Notes under the pieces: generated by a model | The model's input: only the letters and a program-made list of their open reading frames with translations | Databases searched by the model: none | What the model was told of the DNA's origin: nothing | Translations under genes and position numbers: made by a program | In this document: positions 7,836 to 60,880 of the stretch, piece by piece | Layout of the letters: each line of letters begins with the position of its first letter | How positions within the stretch are numbered: the stretch's first letter is position 1 | NCBI GenBank assembly: GCA_040384805.1 | Contig: JAZKIP010000008.1 | Coordinates: 100,749-164,748 of the forward strand | Source: Patescibacteria group bacterium | Lineage (GTDB): Bacteria; Patescibacteriota; Minisyncoccia; Phycocordibacterales; UBA9973 | Direction: 5' to 3' | DNA: 64,000 bases

Positions 7836-8567
7836 TCATTGCCACACGACTTCCCGGATACCGCATATGGCCCAGGAATTGGCAGGTTTGTCCAGAGAGA
7901 TGATAACTTTGCCTGCGCCTGACATAAGAACAGGGAGATGGATCATGCCGGCTTTTTCATCGAGAAACATCCCAGATGAATTGTGAACATTACCCCAAAA
8001 GCGGACACAGGGCACATAACCCAAAGAATGGCGGGATCCTGAACATAAGGTGACAGTCTGCAAATCAGGATGCACGCCTGTCTCTTTATAGAAAACTGCT
8101 TCGTAGAGAAGGCGCTCACAGAGCGTCATCCCTGTTAGTCGGGCCGAATCTACCGATGCCGCCGGCCATCCCATGTACTCTGGATCGGGACTGTCGAGCA
8201 CCCATAGTGCATACGGACGCGGGATAGCACGGATATCGTACACGACGGTATCCAAGTCGCCATCAATGACATTTTTAACTTGAAAGATATCACTCAAGGC
8301 TCGCGTCGCTTTCTTAAGCGTCAATCCCTTGCCGACGATCAGCAGCCTCCAATTTCCGGAAGGACGGGCAGGAATAACAACGCTACTGAAATCCTCTGTC
8401 AAGGAAAAGCAGTAAGAGTAAAACTTTTCCCACGATGTCCGAGAGTAAGATTGACCCCCCTCCCCCTTTAATGCAAAACTCCATTCCCCTAAAGCTGATA
8501 ACGGAATGGTGTCTCCGGGAGCCGGCATACAGAGAGCCCAGATGCCAAGGCTTAAAAGCATATTCAT
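7836..8567 (-). CDS. hypothetical protein (GC-richer than its neighbours)
   Basis: ORF only. Confidence 0.4.
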   Translation of the reverse strand: MNMLLSLGIWALCMPAPGDTIPLSALGEWSFALKGEGGQSYSRTSWEKFYSYCFSLTEDFSSVVIPARPSGNWRLLIVGKGLTLKKATRALSDIFQVKNVIDGDLDTVVYDIRAIPRPYALWVLDSPDPEYMGWPAASVDSARLTGMTLCERLLYEAVFYKETGVHPDLQTVTLCSGSRHSLGYVPCVRFWGNVHNSSGMFLDEKAGMIHLPVLMSGAGKVIISLDKPANSWAICGIREVVWQ

Positions 8568-8671
8568 AATTCATCCTCCTTTTGTTTTATATGAAAAGAA
8601 AATAATATCTATCCATAGATTAGATTATATCTATGCTTTGTCAAGTTTCGTGCAAAAAAAAGATCAGAGGA

Positions 8672-32846: not shown

Positions 32847-32866
32847 CTCAGACTGTCTGCCAGTCA

Positions 32867-32904
32867 GGGAATCTCGATCCTTACAGGGTCAGTACACCCT
32901 TTCC
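32867..32904 (-). promoter_or_regulatory. conserved 5'-leader element, copy 1 (upstream of the NDT-like/APH pair)
   Basis: About 32 of 38 nt identical to 34979..35014. Confidence 0.4.
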
Positions 32905-32993
32905 ATTCGCAGAGTCAGGGACTCGGTCACAAGTATTTTTCTGCTGAAAAATCTCGCGACCCCGCCTCCTCCGACAAAAGTCGGAGTCCGGCT

Positions 32994-33013
32994 TTCGAGT
33001 CCCTGACCGGCAG
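32994..33013 (+). repeat. 20-nt exact copy of the tRNA-Gln 3' end (TTCGAGTCCCTGACCGGCAG), inverted relative to the tRNA gene at 46992..47062
   Basis: Direct sequence identity. Confidence 0.7.
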
Positions 33014-33131
33014 GCGCTTCGTTACACTCAGCTTTCTAGCTGGCCGTCTCGAGCTAGGACCTTTTGGTTCATTACCCTGCAAGGACGGTTTGATACTTTC
33101 CATTGTAACATTTCAACGCGTCTCGAGCGGC

Positions 33132-39059: not shown

Positions 39060-39800
39060 TTATCTATATCTCCGACCCCTTGCCATATAGCATGATATGT
39101 TAGTTAATTTAGATTTCCTTTATCTCCTATTTGCTAACTTAATCATATGGTACGGAAATCAAGAATCGACAAAGGAGGACTTTACTACCGTGTTTATAAC
39201 AAGGCATGTTGGGACAAAACTTTATTTGAGAATGAAGATGATTTCAGGATAGTAAAAGAAAAATTTTCAGAGGCAAAAAGTGCAACGAAAATGAGAATAC
39301 TTGCTTATTGCTTTATGCCAGATCACTTCTATCTTATTCTTTATCCCGTTAATGACGGTGATATGAGAAAGTTTATGCAACTTGCTATTGGCGCGCATAC
39401 GCACTGGTGGCATAGAATGCACAAAACATCTGGATCAGGTCCTATATATAAAGGCAGGTATAAATCTGAGATTATTCCAGAAGACCAGTTGTCTCAACAA
39501 ATAGAGGAAGTAGAAAGTTGCCCTGTAAGGGACAAGTGCGCAGAGACACCTGTGGAATATAAACACTCAAGTGCATCAGCACGCGTTGAGAAAGATTTTA
39601 TGCTGCTTACTAAGTAGCCATGAAGAAAATTTTTCATTTGACTGATTATCCATAACGTAGCATAATTAAACATATTCCCCCACTACACTTTCTAATTTTA
39701 TGATATATTCAGGATAGCCGAACATTTAAATTTTAAAAAAACTGGTTCTCCCGCGTAAAGATTCCTCCTCTATTATAGAGAGGAGGAATATAGACAACGG
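39060..39800 (+). mobile_element. possible IS200-like element with flanking hairpins (extent uncertain)
   Basis: tnpA-like gene, an AT-rich inverted repeat upstream, and a perfect hairpin attcctcctctat-tata-tagagaggaggaat at 39760..39792. Confidence 0.3.
39147..39617 (+). CDS. IS200/IS605-family (Y1 HUH) transposase-like protein / REP-associated tyrosine transposase-like
   Basis: HUH motif AHTHWWH, Tyr in IYKGRYKS, and an ILAYCFMPDHFYLIL core. Confidence 0.6.
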   Translation: MVRKSRIDKGGLYYRVYNKACWDKTLFENEDDFRIVKEKFSEAKSATKMRILAYCFMPDHFYLILYPVNDGDMRKFMQLAIGAHTHWWHRMHKTSGSGPIYKGRYKSEIIPEDQLSQQIEEVESCPVRDKCAETPVEYKHSSASARVEKDFMLLTK

Positions 39801-39975
39801 GGAACAAAACCGATATAGGCTATAGAGAGTCCGTATCATTAACTTACAAACTGGTGCTCAAACTTAAACTTGTGGGAAAATGATAGGCTCATCTCCTTTC
39901 AAAATACCCACGAGTTTAGATTCGTGGGTATTTTGTTCGGCAGGCGATATTACTATTAAAAACTGTTTTAAGCGT

Positions 39976-41247
39976 ATGACTACGTTAAAGGTGATGTGGA
40001 GGGTAGAGATCAGGAAAGTAAATGAGTTGGTTCCGTGGAGTGAAAATCCGCGGAAGATAACAAAGGAAGCTTTTAATAATTTGAAACGAAAGGTTGAAAG
40101 GCATGGTTTCCATAGCGTGATTGTGATCGATGTTGATAACACGATCATCTCTGGAAATCAACGAAAGGATGTACTTATTGAACTCGGAATCGATGAGGTG
40201 AACGTATTGGTACCGGACCGTAAGCTGACCGATGAAGAAAAAAGGAAAATCGCATTGGAAAGCAACATTAACGATGGCGAATGGGATTTTGAAAAATTGA
40301 AGTCATTTGATTTAGGAACATTGATGGATGTGGGTTTTGATGAAGACAGCCTGTCGAATATGTGGGCGGAAAATTTGGAAGCGGAAGATGATTCCTTTGA
40401 AGTCGAGAAAGAGCTTGCCGAGATTACCGAGACAACAACCAAGCTCGGCGACCTCATCATCATGGGCCCTCATCGGTTGATATGCGGGAATACGCTTGAT
40501 CCGGAAGTCCTTAAAAAGCTTTTCGGTGACGAGAGAGCATCGGTAATATACAGTGATCCTCCGTATAACATCTCGCTTGATTACAACAAAGGCATTGGCG
40601 GGAAGCAGCAGTATGGCGGAAACGTAAACGATGATCGATCATATACCGAATACAAGGAATTCTTGCGCCAAAGTATGGCCTGCGCTCTCTCCGTATCACA
40701 ACCCGATACGCACATGTTCTATTGGTCCGACCAGACATATATAGGGCTGATCCAAGAACTCTATCGCGAACTCGGGATAGAGAACAAGCGGGTATGCTTG
40801 TGGATCAAGAACTCGCAGAATCCTGTACCGGGCGTGGCATTCAATAAATGCTACGAACCGTGTACCTATGGACTGCGAGGGCATCCGTATATTGAAAAGA
40901 GCATTAACAATCTTAATGAAGTGATGAACAAAGACATCACGACGGGTAATGATTTGATGGAAGAGGCGTTAGATCATTTAGACTTATGGTTTGTTAAACG
41001 GCTTTCCGGTAAGGAGTACAGGCATGCGACCAGCAAGCCGCCGCGGCTGCATAACAAAGCGATACGTCGCTGTTCCAAAGTCGGGGATATTATTCTCGAT
41101 TCCTTCTCTGGATCGGCAAGTACCATGATTGCAGCACACCAATTGAAGCGAAGAGTATTCGCGGTCGAATTAGAACCAGCATTCTGTGATCTAGCTATTA
41201 AGAGATACGAAGCTCTGACTGGCGAGAAAGCAGAAATAATCCGATAA
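39976..41247 (+). CDS. ParB-like nuclease domain fused to N6-adenine/N4-cytosine DNA methyltransferase
   Basis: An N-terminal ParB-like motif run from ELVPWSENPRK to ISGNQR; motif IV SDPPYN and motif I DSFSGSASTM. The track's N-terminal extension overlaps a strong hairpin, so the start was taken at the ATG at 39976. Confidence 0.85.
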   Translation: MTTLKVMWRVEIRKVNELVPWSENPRKITKEAFNNLKRKVERHGFHSVIVIDVDNTIISGNQRKDVLIELGIDEVNVLVPDRKLTDEEKRKIALESNINDGEWDFEKLKSFDLGTLMDVGFDEDSLSNMWAENLEAEDDSFEVEKELAEITETTTKLGDLIIMGPHRLICGNTLDPEVLKKLFGDERASVIYSDPPYNISLDYNKGIGGKQQYGGNVNDDRSYTEYKEFLRQSMACALSVSQPDTHMFYWSDQTYIGLIQELYRELGIENKRVCLWIKNSQNPVPGVAFNKCYEPCTYGLRGHPYIEKSINNLNEVMNKDITTGNDLMEEALDHLDLWFVKRLSGKEYRHATSKPPRLHNKAIRRCSKVGDIILDSFSGSASTMIAAHQLKRRVFAVELEPAFCDLAIKRYEALTGEKAEIIR

Positions 41248-42926: not shown

Positions 42927-43253
42927 GCAAAATTCTTTTGCGTTTAGGAGTAATTACCGGTGATGAGACGCAAAAAGCCCACCACAGGTAGAGACCGAGG
43001 CCTCTCATATCCGTTTCCAGATACGGCGGATCACGCAACCCTGTGATGGGTTTTTTAAGCATGATCCGACTTTTGACCATATCCTTAGAAATTCCAAGGG
43101 GTTAGGTCGCTATTAAATTGTATCTACATAATACGATATTTTATCGTATTACTCTACCCTATCGCAGATCACTTTATTTGTTAAGGTAGTTACCAACATG
43201 TTGCCAACAGTTCATGTCTTAGCAAAAGGCTCTTTCTCTGTCATTAATTAAAT

Positions 43254-44573
43254 ATGGAAACACAATATATAAATAATCTTGGTGTTAAAACCGAAGTACC
43301 ACGCATAAAGGTTAAGTACGTTCTGTATGCTCGTAAATCAACAGAATCGGATGAGAAGCAAGCTCTATCAATTGAATCGCAAGTAAAAGAGATGCTCACT
43401 ATCGCCGATCGTGACAGTCTTGAAATTGTAGACATTAGGAGAGAATCACACTCGGCCAAAGAGTCTGGACAGAGACCAGTATTTAAAGAATTACTTGATG
43501 ATGTTCGTAGAGGTAGATATACAGGAATACTTACATGGGCACCTGATAGATTGAGCAGAAATGCAGGTGACCTCGGATCTGTCGTGGACCTTATGGATGA
43601 GAATAAGTTAATAGAGATTAGAACATACGGGCAACACTTTAAGAATTCACCCAATGAGAAATTCCTTTTAATGATTCTTTGTAGTCAAGCAAAACTTGAG
43701 AATGATAATAAAAGTATCAATGTGAAGCGAGGACTACGAACAAGATGTGAAATGGGATTAAGACCCGGCCCTGCTCTTTTCGGATATTTTAATGTAAAAC
43801 ATGCAGACAAGAAATGTCAGGTAATTCTTGATCCTGAACGAGCACATATCGCTAAGAAAATGTTTGAGAAAGTAGCCTACGAGAAATGGAGCGGTCGAAA
43901 GATATATCACTGGCTAAAATTTGATCTCAATTTAAAGACAAGGAACGGAAACAAAGGTTTAACTCTAGGAAATATTTATCTTATTCTCCAGAGTCCTTTC
44001 TATTACGGAGTCTTCGAGTATCCCCACAAAAGCGGAAACTTCTATAAAGGTAGACATGAACCTCTAATTACTAAGGAGTTATTTGACCAAGTACAACTAC
44101 AAGTTAAAAGCCAAGTTATTCGATCTGAAAGTAAAGAATTCGCCTTCACTAAATTAATGATATGTGGTCTATGCGATTCTGGTATATGTGCAGATGAGAA
44201 GTTTAAAAAACTTAAGAACGGAGGTGTAAATCGATATGTTTACTATGGATGTACTAAATCGAAAGATAAGAATTGTAAAGGAGGTTATATTGAAGAAAAA
44301 GAACTTATTAAACAATTTGAAGATTTGATTGAGATTATCAGTATTGATGAGATTGGAATAAAAGAAAGGATTAGAACCGAAGTTGAGAGAATAAAAAAAT
44401 TTAATAGTATGCTACTGGGAGTAAAAGATCAAGTCTGCGTAGAAGATATCGACATTAAAAACTACGCAAAGTATTTACTTCGAGAAGGAAAGGATATTGA
44501 AAAACGAGAATTATTGTCTTGCTTTAAAAGTAAGATAGAATTAAAAAATAAAGCTATTATTCTTATAAATTAG
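43254..44573 (+). CDS. large serine recombinase
   Basis: Resolvase catalytic region YARKSTESDEKQ, a recombinase domain, and a Cys-rich zinc ribbon. Confidence 0.9.
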   Translation: METQYINNLGVKTEVPRIKVKYVLYARKSTESDEKQALSIESQVKEMLTIADRDSLEIVDIRRESHSAKESGQRPVFKELLDDVRRGRYTGILTWAPDRLSRNAGDLGSVVDLMDENKLIEIRTYGQHFKNSPNEKFLLMILCSQAKLENDNKSINVKRGLRTRCEMGLRPGPALFGYFNVKHADKKCQVILDPERAHIAKKMFEKVAYEKWSGRKIYHWLKFDLNLKTRNGNKGLTLGNIYLILQSPFYYGVFEYPHKSGNFYKGRHEPLITKELFDQVQLQVKSQVIRSESKEFAFTKLMICGLCDSGICADEKFKKLKNGGVNRYVYYGCTKSKDKNCKGGYIEEKELIKQFEDLIEIISIDEIGIKERIRTEVERIKKFNSMLLGVKDQVCVEDIDIKNYAKYLLREGKDIEKRELLSCFKSKIELKNKAIILIN

Positions 44574-46913: not shown

Positions 46914-46991
46914 AATTTCTATATTATACCACAGAACTAAAGCTAGTTTCTAAACGACGTATCTCGAGCGCGATAACTGCGCTCTTGTTTG

Positions 46992-47062
46992 CTGCCGGTC
47001 AGGGACTCGAACCCCAATACCATCCTCCAGAGGGATGTGTCCTACCATTAGACGAACCGGCA
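46992..47062 (-). tRNA. tRNA-Gln (anticodon CTG)
   Basis: Manual cloverleaf: acceptor TGCCGGT/ACCGGCA with U1-A72 and G73, D arm GTCT/GGAC, anticodon loop CTCTGGA, and T loop TTCGAGT. Confidence 0.85.
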
Positions 47063-55219: not shown

Positions 55220-55408
55220 TGCAAAAATAGCAAAAATACGTATAATGGATATGCTCTATGAAGGGCATTTTTAATTTAAGTTGTAATGGGATTATAGCGG
55301 GGTAGAGAAAAGGCATCTCCAAAGGACATATAGCGCGAAATAACCTGAAGGTTATGAGCCATGTCAAAATGTAAGGAGAAGATGGCAGCGGAGAAAATTA
55401 TATACCAT

Positions 55409-55479
55409 AGCGGGGTAGAGAAAAGGCATCTCGCAAGGCTCATAACCTTGAGATAACGGTTCGATTCCGTTCCCCGCAA
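55409..55479 (+). tRNA. tRNA with CAT anticodon (Met/fMet/Ile2 class), atypical A1-A72 mismatch
   Basis: Manual cloverleaf: D arm GAGA/TCTC, anticodon arm CAAGG-CTCATAA-CCTTG, T arm AACGG-TTCGATT-CCGTT. Confidence 0.55.
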
Positions 55480-55622
55480 CACGTCGGCGTGACAGGCCAA
55501 AATATATGTCATGCCGAGAAAAAATGCAGCAATAGAAGCGTTGGCTCGGCCACAGTCTCGCATCAACGCAATGCTCTACTTGAGGGTAACACCCTCGACA
55601 AGAAGCAATGCAGTTGCTTTTT

Positions 55623-55695
55623 GTCGGGGTAGCTCAGTCGGTAGAGCACAGGACTCATAAGCCTGGGGTCGTGGGTTCGATCCCCACCTCCGACA
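55623..55695 (+). tRNA. tRNA-Met (anticodon CAT)
   Basis: Manual cloverleaf: GCTC/GAGC D arm, CTCATAA loop, GTGGG-TTCGATC-CCCAC T arm. Confidence 0.85.
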
Positions 55696-55727
55696 CACGC
55701 AAAGACATGCTTTGCTAAAAATAAAAT

Positions 55728-55801
55728 GCGGCCGTAGCTCAACTGGTTAGAGCACTCGCCTGTCACGCGAGAGGTTGCCGGTTCAAGTCCGGTCGGCCGC
55801 G
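55728..55801 (+). tRNA. tRNA-Asp (anticodon GTC)
   Basis: Manual cloverleaf: GCGGCCG/CGGCCGC acceptor, CTGTCAC anticodon loop, GCCGG-TTCAAGT-CCGGT T arm. Confidence 0.9.
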
Positions 55802-55904
55802 CAAGAGTGAACGAAGTGGTGGAAAGTCATCCACCAGTGAAGGTTCCTATAATTCCCCAAAAATTTGCTTGCCAAAACGAATCATTTTCCATAATTTTAT
55901 ATCT

Positions 55905-56309
55905 TTACATTATTCTTGTCGGATGAGGAATAAGAGGAATAAGTAATCCTTTACTATAAAAAAGAACTTCTTTGCCTTTCCTTGGTTTATAGGCAATATG
56001 TGTAAAAAAGTAATTTTGCTTTTGTATGTCCTTATCCTTATATAAAATCTGAATTTGTGGAACATCATCATAAGATACAATCCACTGAGCATTTTTTATC
56101 TTTTTTATTTTTTGACTTACTCGTTCGTGATCTTCATGTTCATATGAGTTCATATACAAAGACTGTCCTTTTAAAAAATAAGGTGGGTCAAAATAAAAAA
56201 TAATGTTTTTGCTTTCTGTTTTCTTCTGAATATTATCTACAAGATCTAAAGCATCAAGATTCTCATTATGAGATTTAAGAGCAGTTCTTACGTTAATCAC
56301 TATGCCGCG
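55905..56309 (-). pseudogene. C-terminal fragment of a Dam-like (D12 class) N6-adenine DNA methyltransferase
   Basis: DPPY motif (IIFYFDPPYF) plus C-terminal collinearity with Dam. The N-terminal AdoMet-binding half is absent and replaced by GC-rich hairpins. Confidence 0.5.
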
Positions 56310-56573
56310 CAGAAAAAAGTCCTTTGGGGCTTTTTTGCGCGGCCGAAGCGGGCAAACTGCTTTGCCCGCGACCGGACTTGAAAGACTTTTCCTTATTCGC
56401 AGTAACGAATGGAAAAGTACCCGCGACCGTAGGGCGAAAGTCCAGTCGGACCCATAAGAGGAAGTTCTTATGAGCAAAGCGAATTAGAAACTTGACCCTC
56501 AAGTCCGATTAATTTATAGCCCAGACAAAAATTTTCGGCGGAAAATTTTTAGTCGAGGGAAAGATTCCGGTCG

Positions 56574-56619
56574 GCCGCACCAACGAAAACCACCTATTCT
56601 ATAGGTGGTTTTCTGTGGG
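56574..56619 (+). repeat. 46-bp direct repeat, copy 1 (contains an A-tract-hairpin-T-tract terminator-like structure)
   Basis: gccgcaccaacgaaaaccacctattctataggtggttttctgtggg, identical to 57707..57752. Confidence 0.8.
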
Positions 56620-56651
56620 TGTATGGAACAGAGAACTGATATAATAAAATT

Positions 56652-57638
56652 ATGAAAACTAAAGGTGGCAATACGAAAATTGTCTTTAAAAATCAACCAA
56701 AATTATCTGAGCATGAGATACAAAGTGAAATGAATAAAAGACGAATGCATCTTGTTCGTTCAATTAAAGATTTCATCTTGACCCATAATAGTTTTAAAGG
56801 TAAGGAGGTTGGTGTTACTTTTTCCCATAAAGGTGTTGGGTCGCTTGTAAGTATGATAGAAACAATTGATGAAAAACAGATTCTAAAAATCTCGTTGGGT
56901 TCACATGGTGTTGGAGAGGCTCAGTTTCTAAAAGTGTGGGAGCAAGTAGGAGTTAAAGTACCACAAGTAAAAGAGGCAGGTATTTTGGGTGGGTACTCTT
57001 ACACCCTGATGGAATACATAGATGCACCAATACTAGGAGAAACATTTAGCGGTAAAGAATTAATTCAAAAAGAGAGTTACTCAGAAATGGGACGCATTAT
57101 GAATATAATGCATACACCAAAAGCAAAAGGATATGGCCGTGTTGTTGACGGTAAGGCAAAATACGAAGAATTCAATGACTGGATTCTAGGTGAAGATATG
57201 CAGAAAAGATTTGGGTACATCAAAGAACATTCTCTTCTTGAAAACGAACACGGCTCATTGTCCGTGGCGCTTCAAACACTTATTGAATACACTACTAAGG
57301 AAAATAAAAGTAGCTATTGCCACGGGGATTTTGGCACTTCAAATATTTTTGCTACTATTCCTATAACTGTTTTTGATCCGAATCCAAACTTTAACAATAA
57401 ATACATAGATTTAGGACGAACCCTAGTAATGGTATTAACGCGTCCTAAACAGCAGGAAGCAATAATTCAATTAATTAAGGGTTACTTCCAAGATAAGCCC
57501 TATAATAAAAAGGTTTTACAGGCGTCAGTTTTATTGAATGCTTATATAAAATTTTTTAATTGGCACAAAAAAAGTAAACTGAAGGCGATTGAAAATGTTC
57601 AAGAATACCTTATTCAAAATAGGCATCTACTAGCTTGA
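56652..57638 (+). CDS. APH/choline-kinase family phosphotransferase
   Basis: CHGDFGTSNIF Brenner motif. Confidence 0.7.
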   Translation: MKTKGGNTKIVFKNQPKLSEHEIQSEMNKRRMHLVRSIKDFILTHNSFKGKEVGVTFSHKGVGSLVSMIETIDEKQILKISLGSHGVGEAQFLKVWEQVGVKVPQVKEAGILGGYSYTLMEYIDAPILGETFSGKELIQKESYSEMGRIMNIMHTPKAKGYGRVVDGKAKYEEFNDWILGEDMQKRFGYIKEHSLLENEHGSLSVALQTLIEYTTKENKSSYCHGDFGTSNIFATIPITVFDPNPNFNNKYIDLGRTLVMVLTRPKQQEAIIQLIKGYFQDKPYNKKVLQASVLLNAYIKFFNWHKKSKLKAIENVQEYLIQNRHLLA

Positions 57639-57706
57639 GTTTAGAGTGTGGGTATATAAATATGATCATTATGATTCTGTATTGCAGTTCCAACTTCGTC
57701 CACTAA

Positions 57707-57752
57707 GCCGCACCAACGAAAACCACCTATTCTATAGGTGGTTTTCTGTGGG
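57707..57752 (+). repeat. 46-bp direct repeat, copy 2
   Basis: Identical to 56574..56619. Confidence 0.8.
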
Positions 57753-57778
57753 CCTACCGAACCCTTGAACCAGACATC

Positions 57779-57976
57779 TTAATATTTCCTATTATTCAAC
57801 TCCGCCTCATATATTTCCATAAGCTTAAAGAAGTTCTTCAAGCTCGGTACTGCCCTACCGCATTCCCAATGAGATATTTGATCAGCATATTTAAGTCCCA
57901 TACGTTGAGCGACCTCTTGCTGGGTCAATCGTAATTCTATGCGGATTTGACGTAATTCGTGGGGAATCCAGAGCAT
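57779..57976 (-). CDS. XRE-family HTH transcriptional regulator
   Basis: LRLTQQEVAQRMGLKYADQISHWECGRAVP Cro/C1-type HTH. Confidence 0.7.
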   Translation of the reverse strand: MLWIPHELRQIRIELRLTQQEVAQRMGLKYADQISHWECGRAVPSLKNFFKLMEIYEAELNNRKY

Positions 57977-58160
57977 AGACCCATATTAGCGCTCTTTTTA
58001 ATAAGCAGTAAGGTAGGGTTAATTACAGATAAAAGCAAAACTTTAAGGAGCAACTAATTTATCTACAATAAACATGTAGTCCGAGCTCTGGATCATTCTG
58101 ACTGTTATCTGCAAGCACTAACGTAGTAGAATCAACTATGTATTAAAGTTCTCCATTGAA

Positions 58161-58529
58161 TTATTTTGAAACTTCTAATGCGACTGTTTTATTTTTACAA
58201 TCCACGATAGCTTTATACTTAAATTTTTCCATAAAGGCAATCCCAAGCAACGGGAGTCCATCCGTTATTAAAACAGTTATGTATATATTTTCGCCTTCCA
58301 TACTGGCGAGAGCAACAGCTGAACGTACGGCGATCAGTTCATTGGATGCTGTTCTCATTTTTGTTACTCCATCTATATTTAAACCTAATTCAACAGCAAT
58401 TTCAGGGGTAACTGCTAAATCACCAGTAAAGCCGGTATCTAAAACGAAATAAGGAGTTTGGACTGCTTGGCCCCATGCAATAGTAGCTTCGATCATAGGC
58501 TTATCGCCTTCGATAAATTTTCCGATCAT
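58161..58529 (-). CDS. retropepsin-like (clan AA) aspartyl protease
   Basis: VLDTGFTGDLAV has the catalytic D-T-G. Confidence 0.65.
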   Translation of the reverse strand: MIGKFIEGDKPMIEATIAWGQAVQTPYFVLDTGFTGDLAVTPEIAVELGLNIDGVTKMRTASNELIAVRSAVALASMEGENIYITVLITDGLPLLGIAFMEKFKYKAIVDCKNKTVALEVSK

Positions 58530-58531
58530 AT

Positions 58532-58831
58532 TTATTTAACGGCCATGAGATGTGCCATTGTTTCAGCGGCATCAAAGCCGATTTTTTTTACAAAAAAAAC
58601 TTTGTTAGGATGTTCTGCTTTAGCTAAAACTACTGCTTCAGCACTTGTTGGAGAAAGATATATATCTTCACTTTCAATATCGATAGCTAAAAACTTGCCC
58701 TTGTTAGTCTCATTCTCATATTGACCTCTTATTTTCTCATAGATTTTAGCGCCTTCAGTAGCGATATGCTGAAGATCGGTTGTCTTTAGAAGTTCTTCTG
58801 GATTCATAAATGATGACTTATTGCTTTGCAA
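58532..58831 (-). CDS. small protein, possibly DUF5678-like, coupled to the aspartyl protease
   Basis: 3-nt gap to the protease gene. The family assignment is from memory only. Confidence 0.35.
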   Translation of the reverse strand: MQSNKSSFMNPEELLKTTDLQHIATEGAKIYEKIRGQYENETNKGKFLAIDIESEDIYLSPTSAEAVVLAKAEHPNKVFFVKKIGFDAAETMAHLMAVK

Positions 58832-59127
58832 GTTTCGCCTGCTATTACATTTTTACTATAGCATACACATGCATATTCGCGCTAACACCAGTATTTCCGT
58901 ATTCGACCTGTTATATTTAGAGTATAAATTTTTGACCTTAAAAAACTTCTAAATTTTTATATATAAGCCAACTATCGTTTCAGCTTATAATAGAAATTAT
59001 TCCTTTCTCCTTTTAAGATCGGAAATAAAAATATAATTCTGAGTCGCATTTTCAAAAACGCCTCATTTTTCTACCTCTTATGCATGCACTAGCAATTATC
59101 AAACATTCGTGGTATAGTGAAAAAATG

Positions 59128-59403
59128 ATGAAAAACATTTATAACAAAGGAATATCGACGCTTGAAGTTGTCATCATTGGGGTTATCATCCTGATCATCA
59201 TTATCATCGGTTTCGGATCAAACTACCGCACATTCGGGAACCAGCCTGTAACATATAGAACATTTAATCAGTATCAGACTGCCCCATCAAGGACAAGCTA
59301 TACAAGCTATCAACTGCCGAGCACAAGTTACACATACTCGTATCCTACGACTACTACGACAGGAGGTACGACAACTGTAACCACGCAGGAGATCGTTCAA
59401 TAG
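59128..59403 (+). CDS. prepilin-type N-terminal domain protein (putative pilin/pseudopilin) with Thr/Tyr/Ser-rich tail
   Basis: MKNIYNKGISTLEVVIIGVIILIII resembles the KG-(F/I)-TLxE cleavage/methylation motif. Confidence 0.45.
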   Translation: MKNIYNKGISTLEVVIIGVIILIIIIIGFGSNYRTFGNQPVTYRTFNQYQTAPSRTSYTSYQLPSTSYTYSYPTTTTTGGTTTVTTQEIVQ

Positions 59404-59465: not shown

Positions 59466-59530
59466 ATAGGCCGATACAAGGAGGATTGATATAATAGGTT
59501 GATGATTTTCAAAAATCATATTCTCACCAT

Positions 59531-60880
59531 ATGACTCACGAGAAAAAACATATAGGGATCATCGGATCAGGCAGATTTACGGAGACCCTTCTTCGCCTCT
59601 TCGGCAACGATTTTGCCATTATCGTCTGTGGACGAAATGATGCATCTCTTCGAGCGCTCAAGAAAAAACATGCCGTTCGAATAACGAAAGATCTCAAGGA
59701 CATGGCAGCATGCGATGCGGTTATTTTTGCCGTGCCGATATCGGCATTACAAGAAGTTCTCTCGCGTTACGCGCCCCTTGCTCCTCAGACGCAAACCTTG
59801 ATAGATGTGCTGTCGATAAAATCATATCCGAAAAGAGTTTTCAAAAAAATAATGAAAGGAAGACATTCCAATATCCTTCTCACTCATCCTCTCTTCGGCC
59901 CCGATAGCAGCAAGAAAGGATTCAAGGGTTTGCCGATCATGATCGACGACAGCATGTGTAACGGCAAAGAAGCGGGATTTTGGACCTCATATTTTAAAAA
60001 GAAAGACTTGAAGATAGTGCCTCTGTCATCAGAAGAGCATGACAAGCTTGCGGCGCGGTCGCAAGGGCTTGCTCATTTTATCGGCCGGGTCCTTGAAGAT
60101 TTTAACATCGAAAGTTCCCCTATCGACACTCTCGGAGCCAAGAAGCTCATGGAAATCAAGGAGCAGACCTGCAGCGACACACGAGAGCTTTTCTCGGATC
60201 TTCAGCACTATAATCCGTATACCAAAGCGATGAGAACGAGCCTCGGCAAAAGCTTTGACCGCATTTTCAACGCTCTTCTGCCTAAGAGATCAGATAATCG
60301 TTTTATTACATTCGGCATACAGGGAGCAGAGGGGAGTTTCTGCGAACAGGCGGCATTCGAGTACATAAAAAACAAAGGCATCAAAAATCCTTCGCTTAAA
60401 TACTTATACACATCAGAGAAAGTTCTCAACGAGCTTCATAAAGGAAATATCGATTTCGGACTATGCGCCCTTCACAACAGCCATGGCGGCGTCGTTGAGG
60501 AAACGCTTTATGCCGTAGCCCGTCATAGATGCGATATCGTTGAAGAATTCTCGATACGAGTCAGACATTTCTTGATGAAAAGAAAAGATATTCCTTCCGA
60601 GAAGATTTCTTCCATCATGGCCCATCCACAAGTGTTTAAGCAATGCAGGCATACTCTCGCGAAACTGTATCCGGAGCTCACAACGATAAGCGGAGCAGGT
60701 GATCTTGTCGATACGGCCCGGGCAGCGCAGGCTCTTTCTACAGGGGAAATTTCGAAAACATACGCTATCCTGGGATCCCGATCTATCGCCGATCTGTATA
60801 ACTTTGATATTATCGGAGAGGATCTTCAGGATGATAAGGATAATCATACGTCGTTCGTCGTATTAAAGAGAGCTCATTGA
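59531..60880 (+). CDS. bifunctional prephenate dehydrogenase / prephenate dehydratase fusion (TyrA-PheA), no ACT domain
   Basis: N-terminal IGIIGSGRFT Rossmann TyrA-like half. C-terminal PDT-like half with ITFGIQGAEGSFCEQAA and NHTSFVVL. Confidence 0.7.
   Translation: MTHEKKHIGIIGSGRFTETLLRLFGNDFAIIVCGRNDASLRALKKKHAVRITKDLKDMAACDAVIFAVPISALQEVLSRYAPLAPQTQTLIDVLSIKSYPKRVFKKIMKGRHSNILLTHPLFGPDSSKKGFKGLPIMIDDSMCNGKEAGFWTSYFKKKDLKIVPLSSEEHDKLAARSQGLAHFIGRVLEDFNIESSPIDTLGAKKLMEIKEQTCSDTRELFSDLQHYNPYTKAMRTSLGKSFDRIFNALLPKRSDNRFITFGIQGAEGSFCEQAAFEYIKNKGIKNPSLKYLYTSEKVLNELHKGNIDFGLCALHNSHGGVVEETLYAVARHRCDIVEEFSIRVRHFLMKRKDIPSEKISSIMAHPQVFKQCRHTLAKLYPELTTISGAGDLVDTARAAQALSTGEISKTYAILGSRSIADLYNFDIIGEDLQDDKDNHTSFVVLKRAH

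Follow-up and report, generated by a model that had tools for sequence, protein, structure and literature searches.

A kinase gene between identical 46-bp repeats behind tRNA-Asp in a Patescibacteria bacterium: candidate junctions of an integrase-less cassette

The repeats and the gene between them

Downstream of a tRNA-Asp gene in an uncultured Patescibacteria (CPR) bacterium akin to Nomurabacteria and Paceibacteria, two perfect 46-bp direct repeats (copy 1, positions 56574-56619; copy 2, positions 57707-57752) enclose one kinase gene, which raises the question of whether the repeats are the ends of a mobile unit or arose in another way. We followed this question through the whole stretch of DNA that was analysed (64,000 nucleotides, referred to as the window) and through related sequences. 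The features of the locus are as follows.

55728..55802, + strand: intact tRNA-Asp (GTC), found by ARAGORN and by the Rfam tRNA model (71.7 bits), the last of a tRNA-Met, tRNA-Met, tRNA-Asp cluster
55796-55803, + strand: core copy 1, GCCGCGCA, the last tRNA-Asp bases with 2 trailing nt
55804..56303, - strand: methylase-remnant insertion of low GC, with the C-terminal part alone of a D12-class N6-adenine DNA methyltransferase
56304..56311, + strand: core copy 2, GCCGCGCA, which repeats the tRNA-Asp end (8 nt, direct) and bounds the methylase-remnant insertion on its right
56334..56464, + strand: structured element E1 (region fold z = -7.6; covariation in its family; 116 bits with model R1)
56465..56582, + strand: extra hairpin-rich E1 module, ending in tail 2, GATTCCGGTCGGCCGCACCA (56563-56582)
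56574..56619, + strand: 46-bp repeat copy 1, core copy 3 (GCCGCA, within GCCGCACCA) with the native tRNA-Asp terminator hairpin
56636..57638, + strand: kinase unit, an extended -10 box followed by a 328-aa gene of the APH/fructosamine-kinase family
57640..57706, + strand: non-coding end block (65 nt), the right end of the kinase cassette, traced by blastn and pattern search
57707..57752, + strand: 46-bp repeat copy 2, core copy 4 with the same terminator as copy 1
57779..58831, - strand: low-GC trio beyond copy 2, encoding a 65-aa XRE-type HTH protein, a 122-aa protein with a DTG motif and a 99-aa protein

A preliminary description of this DNA had reported identical 46-bp sequences bracketing a single APH-type kinase gene, and this was confirmed: the 46-mer is present twice in the 64-kb window when up to three mismatches are allowed, where shuffled sequences predict no copy, and one 328-aa open reading frame lies between the two. 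The edges of the identity are abrupt, the 60 nt beside each copy being no more alike than shuffled sequence, and a longer repeat (56 nt, 93%) was rejected as a chance match, the flanks of the 46-mer not rising above the shuffles. Each copy forms a strong A-tract/hairpin/T-tract structure, as had also been described, and the fold bears this out (a hairpin of 13+5 bp, -23 kcal/mol, z = -6.2). A simple terminator scan did not call the 46-mer, which we attribute to the putative absorption of the A and T tracts into the stem.

The first 9 nt of the repeat, GCCGCACCA, form the terminal part of a displaced tRNA-Asp 3' end, and the other 37 nt are the terminator which, from the comparison of syntenic relatives, natively trails the tRNA-Asp end. 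The first repeat had been said to begin exactly where a tRNA-like fragment ends; this proved incorrect, since the two overlap (fragment at 56566-56578, repeat from 56574). A terminator homologous to that of copy 1 follows the tRNA or a tRNA fragment in three related sequences (L018, L051 and L090), and within the 810 kb of sequence compared this terminator type was found only directly after a tRNA end or a displaced fragment of one, occurring twice only in the window. Copy 2 serves as a predicted two-way terminator between the kinase gene (+ strand) and the HTH gene (- strand).

An independent assembly of run SRR26324625 breaks inside the 46-mer, and both right-hand junctions are present in it: contig L001 consists of the cassette with 30 nt of the repeat at each end, and contig L017 opens 30 nt into the repeat and continues as far as the HTH gene. 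The repeat therefore occurs in two contexts in these reads and is real there. Among the public runs, the exact sequences of the kinase, the HTH protein and the 122-aa protein were found only in SRR26324625, and a search of the public runs with the exact pyrophosphatase returned no record.

The only open reading frame between the repeat copies (56652-57638, 328 aa) has a weak Pfam match to fructosamine kinase; its 220 homologues, mostly from Parcubacteria, carry PF01636 (APH). An extended -10 box, TGATATAAT, lies at 56637-56645, and its distance of about 6 nt from the ATG suggests a leaderless kinase message. The conserved 65-nt block behind the gene recurs in L018 and, where the kinase is missing, in L051 and L037; its RNAalifold consensus fold contains no pairs. 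More distant kinase homologues lie in unrelated genomic contexts. Contigs of 1.0-1.4 kb carrying kinase homologues were considered as possible repeat-bounded cassettes; L094 (74% identical), the sole one checked, does not have such ends.

Stacked insertions behind tRNA-Asp and their counterparts in relatives

The kinase cassette is one member of a stack, in the order tRNA-Asp, methylase-remnant segment, E1, kinase cassette and further variable DNA. From 55802 to about 59300 the GC content falls from the 44-50% of the core genome to 28-39%. Every insertion in the stack starts after a copy of the core GCCGC(G/A), of which the window holds four. The tRNA-Asp end thus recurs three times downstream of the gene, as GCCGCGCA at 56304-56311, as TCCGGTCGGCCGC-ACCA at 56566-56582 and as GCCGCACCA at 57707-57715, with the shorter core copies at 56304-56311, 56574-56582 and 57707-57715; TCCGGTCGGCCGC itself (56566-56578) is a 13-nt exact copy of the tRNA-Asp 3' end. 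The earlier picture of two repeats accordingly needs extension, because it counted two copies where the core has four and missed the methylase insertion and E1. The tRNA-like fragment that it placed before the first repeat is present, although it is supplied by the 3' end of E1.

The methylase remnant (GC 28-33%) is flanked on both sides by the 8-nt repeat GCCGCGCA. Its PF02086 match covers profile positions 158-247 of 253, with the stop codon at 55905-55907, and the segment is the leftover of a larger insert. All five of the syntenic relatives that carry E1 (L030, L037, L051, L055 and L070) are missing this 507-nt insertion, their blastn alignments skipping 55804-56310. Core copy 2 is followed by E1's own A-tract/hairpin/T-tract, which extends to about 56341, and in relatives the terminator found behind core copy 2 comes directly after tRNA-Asp. 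At the far side of the stack, the trio at 57779..58831 has a GC content of 33-39%, HTH_3 as its sole Pfam match and no match at this site in relatives.

The open reading frames from 55802 to 59400 encode the methylase fragment, the kinase, the HTH protein and three proteins of no known kind; in these approximately 3.6 kb behind the tRNA, neither an integrase nor a transposase was found in the ORF list or by Pfam. Within the window, the sole recombinase detected lies 12 kb away (43254-44570) and is a large serine recombinase, a family not known to target tRNA genes (PMC4383910).

The relative L018 came from searching proteins with the kinase and then looking up the contig, and the other relatives of the locus by a metagenome scan. 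A search for synteny in GTDB genomes through the downstream tyrA/pheA-like gene had as its best match a 65%-identical Nomurabacteria MAG with no tRNA nearby, and this approach was abandoned. The gene order in L018 is RF2, tRNA-Thr, tRNA-Met, tRNA-Met, tRNA-Asp, kinase, a 228-aa gene, GatA, GatC and LigA; directly behind its tRNA-Asp stand a terminator of the type seen in the window, then that same promoter and the kinase, with no E1 at that place. The window aligns with L018 over 55620-55803 and again over 56566-57713, both stretches including the tRNA end, so that all of 55804-56565 is inserted relative to L018. This two-piece alignment shows copy 1 to be the original tRNA-Asp 3' end with its native terminator, displaced downstream by tRNA-proximal insertions. 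The homology stops at 57713, 7 nt into copy 2; that is, it comprises one repeat and the unique segment.

The cassette slot differs among relatives, the kinase being present, absent or replaced by other genes. An empty site was looked for in related genomes, and in L030 and L055 the slot is empty: tRNA-Asp and E1 are followed by a homologue of a 204-aa gene, with neither methylase nor kinase. L051, a closer relative, has no kinase; the same type of terminator stands right after tail 2 of its E1, and beyond it come a different gene on the other strand, the 65-nt block, a tRNA-end-like core and another terminator. L037 has two cassettes, with an HAD hydrolase and a LysE-type transporter, each followed by a core and an A-tract/hairpin/T-tract, and a full copy of the tRNA-Asp 3' end at the far end. 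The slot of L070 holds a PIN-PhoH gene. In L090, a more distant genome, the genomic surroundings are unrelated, and there the same unit of terminator, promoter and kinase starts precisely where tRNA-Ile(TAT) ends.

Compared with its L018 counterpart, the kinase unit of the window has 82.4% DNA identity over 1,151 nt, non-coding ends included, and the flanking core genes have 64-69%. At the level of single genes, the identities are 80% (amino acids) and 69% (nucleotides) for CTP synthase, 77% and 82% for the kinase, and 55% (amino acids) for GatA. Since the DNA identity of the unit is far above that of the flanking genes, the cassette is younger than the genomes that carry it; its common ancestor being more recent than that of the genomes, the cassette has moved between lineages.

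The structured element E1

E1 stands between the methylase remnant and the first 46-bp repeat. Its 5' part consists of arm X1 (GCGGCCG, 56339-56345), hairpin H1 (56348-56369) and arm X2 with a complement of the T-loop (GACCGGACTTGAA, 56370-56382); the conserved core, GAAAGACTTTTC..GAAAAGTACCCGCGACCGTAGGGCGA, follows, and the degenerate tail AAGTCCAGTCGGAC (56438-56451) is a copy of the T-loop and 3' strand of tRNA-Asp. The arms of the window copy have the same lineage-specific C-G pair as the acceptor stem of tRNA-Asp. Tail 2 aligns to the end of tRNA-Asp in L018 and to tail 2 of L051, and is the original tRNA-Asp 3' end, now displaced.

Known RNAs at 56290-56583 (tmRNA, RNase P RNA, intron, T-box) were ruled out by Rfam, in gathering and E-value modes, and by ARAGORN, which found no tRNA or tmRNA at 56334-56583. 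When this latter region was compared with Rfam 15 at E <= 10, the only match was TeloSII_ncR30 on the minus strand, overlapping the 3' end, at chance level (15.7 bits against a gathering score of 86, E = 1.6). No description of E1 was found in the literature searched.

A scan of metagenomes with an 18-mer from E1 gave 66 loci, about 55 of them with the same architecture, and a covariance model detected additional copies without the exact 18-mer; note that the window E1, scoring 116 bits, belongs to the seed alignment of this model, R1. Such a locus has a tRNA or tmRNA gene, then a terminator hairpin, arm X1, hairpin H1, an arm X2 that extends through the T-loop complement, GAAAGACTTTTC, a variable hairpin, GAAAAGTACCCGCGACCGTAGGGCGA, and lastly a tail repeating the upstream tRNA's 3' end, beginning at the T-loop. 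X2, and in many copies X1 too, is complementary to the tail, and the arms vary with the identity of the tRNA. E1 was found behind tRNA-Trp, Gln, Leu, Gly, Ala, Asp, Pro, Arg, Ile, Cys, Lys, Ser, Val and Met, amounting to at least 15 isoacceptor types, and behind tmRNA (next to smpB), with no copy downstream of tRNA-Thr in the fetched loci. The E1 core is also present in a short insertion behind the tRNA-Gln of L018. A same-strand E1 lies within 400 nt downstream of 59 of 91 tRNA/tmRNA genes, a fraction that is inflated because the loci were chosen for having one copy. At tRNA-Asp the element is kept in six relatives, with 77-80% DNA identity in the five that were measured versus 64-72% for neighbouring genes.

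The match of arms and tails was assessed by a column-wise pair count, an earlier and cruder longest-run test having been uninformative. In an alignment of 26 copies, 92% of cells pair, versus 36-52% with slid partners; changes on both sides were seen in 22 of 32 pairs, and none of 500 shuffles matched the observed values. On the tRNA strand, G-T pairs outnumber A-C pairs (29 vs 16, p = 0.07), which weakly favours folding on that strand. Clustering all against all the 337 ORFs within 4 kb of E1 copies, in search of a protein partner, yielded only housekeeping genes that are shared through synteny. Searches of IMG/VR viral contigs for the terminator, the E1 18-mer and a gapped E1 pattern gave a single chance match and nothing else, and a phage or plasmid origin was rejected, the region having no blastn match in phage and plasmid collections.

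A weak second copy with arms of the tRNA-Gln type occurs in the window itself (32896-32999, - strand; 18.7 bits, E = 0.005), 14 kb from tRNA-Gln and on the same strand as that gene. The interval between the two holds a large serine recombinase, a LOOT RNA, and genes for an IS200-like transposase and a DNA methylase.

The layout of E1, read as direct copy, cargo, inverted copy, loop and direct copy, would fit equally a folded single-strand attachment site after integration and, if the element is transcribed, a mimic of a tRNA minihelix. A possible but doubtful reading makes E1 a targeting module, acting as folded RNA or single-stranded DNA, whose arms would be matched to one tRNA or tmRNA 3' end and would make or mark a landing pad for single-gene cassettes, with the 46-bp repeats as cassette junctions.

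Origin of the repeats and comparison with known systems

As the explanation of the two 46-mers, we favour, with a probability of roughly 0.55, that they are att-like left and right junctions of an integrase-less cassette of 1,133 bp inside an array of insertions at the tRNA-Asp 3' end. The cassette would consist of the terminator, its own promoter, the kinase, the 65-nt end block and the core, and it would have recombined through the shared core. Each insertion of the array would begin right behind a copy of the acceptor-strand end, GCCGC(G/A), and either bring or meet an A-tract/hairpin/T-tract terminator. Site-specific recombination between a circular cassette and a tRNA end is expected to leave the pattern that was observed. 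In the lineage of the window the cassette terminator equals the native terminator, whose type L051 shows, and therefore the block of identity reaches 46 bp; in L018, where the native terminator differs, the two cassette sides share only about 9 nt. What the comparison shows directly is where the junctions lie, that the cassette is kept, missing or replaced among relatives, its tie to tRNA ends and its young age. Since no recombinase was found in or beside the cassette, we infer the recombination mechanism, and the enzyme would act in trans, encoded either at another place in the genome or by a helper element. The kinase would be transcribed from its own TGnTATAAT promoter, and the repeat would insulate transcription, stopping the transcript of tRNA and E1, that of the kinase and, from the other side, that of the HTH gene.

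The sharp edges, the perfect identity, the low GC content, the four cores and the tie of the terminator to tRNA ends count for the cassette. Against it count the tRNA part of the repeat, which at 9 nt is shorter than usual for tRNA-targeting integrases, and the flanks common to L051 and the window, which would permit a swap of cargo by ordinary homologous recombination. The preliminary description had thought of an att-flanked cassette or of an insertion into a terminator behind the tRNA, and this direction was right in view of the relatives, the unit behind another tRNA in L090, the slot contents and the identity of 82% vs 64-69%; it remains that no recombinase is nearby.

Homologous recombination could by itself have exchanged the cargo between two conserved flanks, the left-hand terminator and the right-hand 65-nt block, with DNA from relatives and without a site-specific recombinase, the second 46-mer being imported with the donor DNA or gene-converted from copy 1. 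That L051 and the window share both flanks around different cargo would suit this, as would the absence of a recombinase at hand and the similarity of the kinase unit between the window and L018, which exceeds that of the surrounding genes by far, as it would after recombinational import. However, the unit of L090 starts exactly at the end of another tRNA, so that the left flank shared there is the tRNA end only; the segment boundaries in the window and in L037 all fall on copies of the tRNA acceptor end, a signature of site-specific insertion; and an identity of 46 out of 46 with abrupt edges is left unexplained. We regard this exchange as unlikely.

Alternatively, the tRNA end and terminator may have been duplicated locally, by slippage or unequal crossing-over at the hairpin, around a kinase that has long been resident and never moved. 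The kinase has the same position in L018, hairpins favour slippage, and identical copies imply a recent event; a duplication of this kind nevertheless fails to account for the kinase unit behind tRNA-Ile in L090 and for the contrast between 82% and 64-69% DNA identity, and in all four of the relatives bearing the block (4/4) a tRNA-end-like core and a terminator stand behind it. We therefore consider local duplication a distinctly poor candidate.

Wide staggered cuts in the style of a casposase or of CRISPR Cas1-Cas2 would have placed a 1,087-bp insert in the native terminator, with 46 bp duplicated by gap repair. Casposons use hairpin sites beside tRNA 3' ends, and the repeat is such a hairpin adjoining a tRNA 3' end; perfect identity and sharp edges would also be expected. 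Yet the insert's ends showed no inverted repeat in the repeat search, the vicinity has neither a Cas1-like gene nor a transposase gene, and in L018 and L090 the terminator accompanies the kinase on the left only, with no right-hand duplicate, all of which makes target-site duplication very improbable. Finally, a misplaced loop in the assembly graph is scarcely credible: the repeat does collapse at k = 31, and the Logan contigs break within it, but both right-hand junction contexts are in the reads of the independent assembly, NCBI has an identical kinase protein (locus tag V4665_03355) from a Patescibacteria MAG, on a contig of 209,578 bp, and tRNA end, terminator, kinase and block have the same order in L018.

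Returning to the att-flanked cassette, we compared the array with known mobile systems. Genomic islands as defined by Islander are integrated in tRNA or tmRNA genes by tyrosine integrases, and candidates shorter than 2 kb or without an integrase are discarded (PMC4383910). In common with such islands, the array has an intact tRNA-Asp (55728-55802) at one end and 3' fragments of the same tRNA further on in direct orientation, the kinase cassette's own tRNA-derived part being 9 nt; the inserted DNA supplies a new tRNA end and terminator; the insertions are low in GC, and relatives lack them at the corresponding site; and the E1 family makes use of tmRNA genes as well. It differs in that no tyrosine integrase lies inside the array, that the segments measure 0.13-1.1 kb (individual values 0.5, 0.27 and 1.13 kb) and so stay below 2 kb, and that the repeats of the kinase cassette comprise 9 nt of tRNA and 37 nt of terminator only. 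Because the units are shorter than 2 kb and have no integrase, standard island finders would miss all of them.

Transposons and insertion sequences find no counterpart here, as the repeat search revealed no terminal inverted repeats and the insert has no transposase ORF. CIMEs are att-flanked elements without an integrase, which form tandem accretion arrays at one att site in ICESt1/ICESt3 of Streptococcus thermophilus. Likewise, in our locus direct repeats of the core flank tandem segments that have no recombination genes, which implies mobilisation in trans, and the segments are present, absent or replaced at the same site in relatives. In contrast to CIMEs, the host here belongs to the CPR, the segments consist of one gene each, and no helper element or cognate integrase was identified. 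In its behaviour the array comes closest to such elements, which are att-flanked, have no integrase and gather in accretion arrays.

Integron cassettes carry attC sites with an R''/L''/L'/R' layout and a GTTRRRY core, and depend on IntI and attI. The array resembles them in its row of single-gene units, in the hairpin-forming site at their bounds and in the cargo that varies between relatives at one platform, whereas it has neither an IntI gene nor attI around the locus, its repeat hairpins show neither the R''/L''/L'/R' layout nor GTTRRRY, its cassettes have their own promoters, and its platform is a tRNA 3' end. Attachment sites may also be folded single strands, as in the attP(+) hairpin of CTX phage used by XerCD and the bottom strands of integron attC. 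For E1 alone, two inverted copies of the target around a loop would let one strand fold into a duplex that mimics the target; on the other hand, its excess of G-T over A-C pairs suits RNA equally, and no link to Xer or an integrase was found.

If the reading of E1 as a targeting module is true, it would mean a tRNA-anchored, integron-like capture of genes in CPR without a locally encoded recombinase. E1 is widespread, strongly covarying and outside Rfam; it would represent a new class of tRNA-linked non-coding RNA if it is an RNA; acting as DNA, it would be an attachment site of a new type. CPR bacteria (Patescibacteria) have tiny genomes, and how they gain genes is little understood. The present locus offers a concrete route, in which accessory genes (kinase, HAD hydrolase, LysE-type transporter and PIN-PhoH) are swapped directly behind tRNA-Asp, at junctions made of the last bases of the tRNA and a terminator.

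An undescribed element behind tRNA and tmRNA genes

The structured element E1 lies between tRNA-Asp and the kinase cassette (window 56334-56582), and it was also observed at loci L018 and L024-L089. Many metagenome contigs from Parcubacteria have E1 downstream of tRNA or tmRNA genes, and its arms are the complement of the 3' end of whichever tRNA precedes the element. The covariation in E1 was strong, Rfam contained no match for it, and no protein linked to the element was found. E1 is a previously undescribed structured element.

A divergent second E1-like element was located at window 32856-33016 (-), where R1, the covariance model of E1, gave 18.7 bits (E = 0.005). The arms of this element match the 3' end of tRNA-Gln (17/18 nt at 32997-33014), and a further copy of the same 3' end is present at 32856-32873 (15/18 nt). 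The tRNA-Gln gene itself (46991-47062) is on the same strand, 14 kb away from the element. The last two of the following features (window 42990-44573) are contained in a low-GC stretch that extends up to tRNA-Gln, and the first two (window 39147-41247) belong to the same variable region.

39147-39617, IS200-like Y1 transposase gene
39880-41247, N6/N4 DNA methylase gene, beside the transposase gene
42990-43108, LOOT RNA (77.9 bits), adjoining the recombinase
43254-44570, large serine recombinase (Resolvase, Recombinase and Zn-ribbon domains; GC 35%)

tRNA genes are not known as targets of serine integrases (PMC4383910).

Partial and split tRNA sequences

For the first tRNA-Met (55409-55480), a copy of the initial 30 nt with 94% identity is present 113 nt upstream (55294-55325), followed by an inverted copy of the tRNA-Met anticodon arm at 55345-55363. 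These fragments (55294-55363) represent an arrangement on the 5' side of the tRNA, which could also be aligned in the syntenic relatives L030 and L055. In L037, a module of ~100 nt occurs two and a half times in tandem downstream of E1 (~8400-8612), each time terminating in a partial copy of the tRNA-Asp 3' end (..TCCGGTCGGCCGATCTTGAAC TATAGGGCGAAAGATTCCGGTCGAC..). In the relative L076 (~1067-1385), ~235 nt interrupt the anticodon loop of tRNA-Asp behind position 36; they may be an intron.

The variable slot and its flanks

At its right end, the variable slot behind tRNA-Asp keeps a conserved non-coding block of 65 nt, with the kinase or without it.

window 57640-57706, 65-nt block
L018 10990-11056, 65-nt block
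L051 1424-1489, 65-nt block

No consensus fold was found for the block. The final 30 nt of the block may be a decayed 3' half of tRNA-Asp, as judged from a sequence likeness that is not significant.

Beyond repeat copy 2 (57707-57752), a low-GC stretch includes an XRE-type HTH gene and, adjoining it, the genes for two proteins without a match in Pfam.

58161-58831 (-), protein of 122 aa bearing a retropepsin-like DTG motif, and its partner of 99 aa

A similar box precedes both the tyrA/pheA-like gene (TTGATATAAT, window 59487-59533) and the kinase gene (TGATATAAT, window 56637-56654), and the cassette genes of L018, L037 and the more distant L090 have the same box upstream. Because the TGATATAAT box is only ~6 nt upstream of the kinase ATG, the sequence suggests that the kinase message is leaderless.
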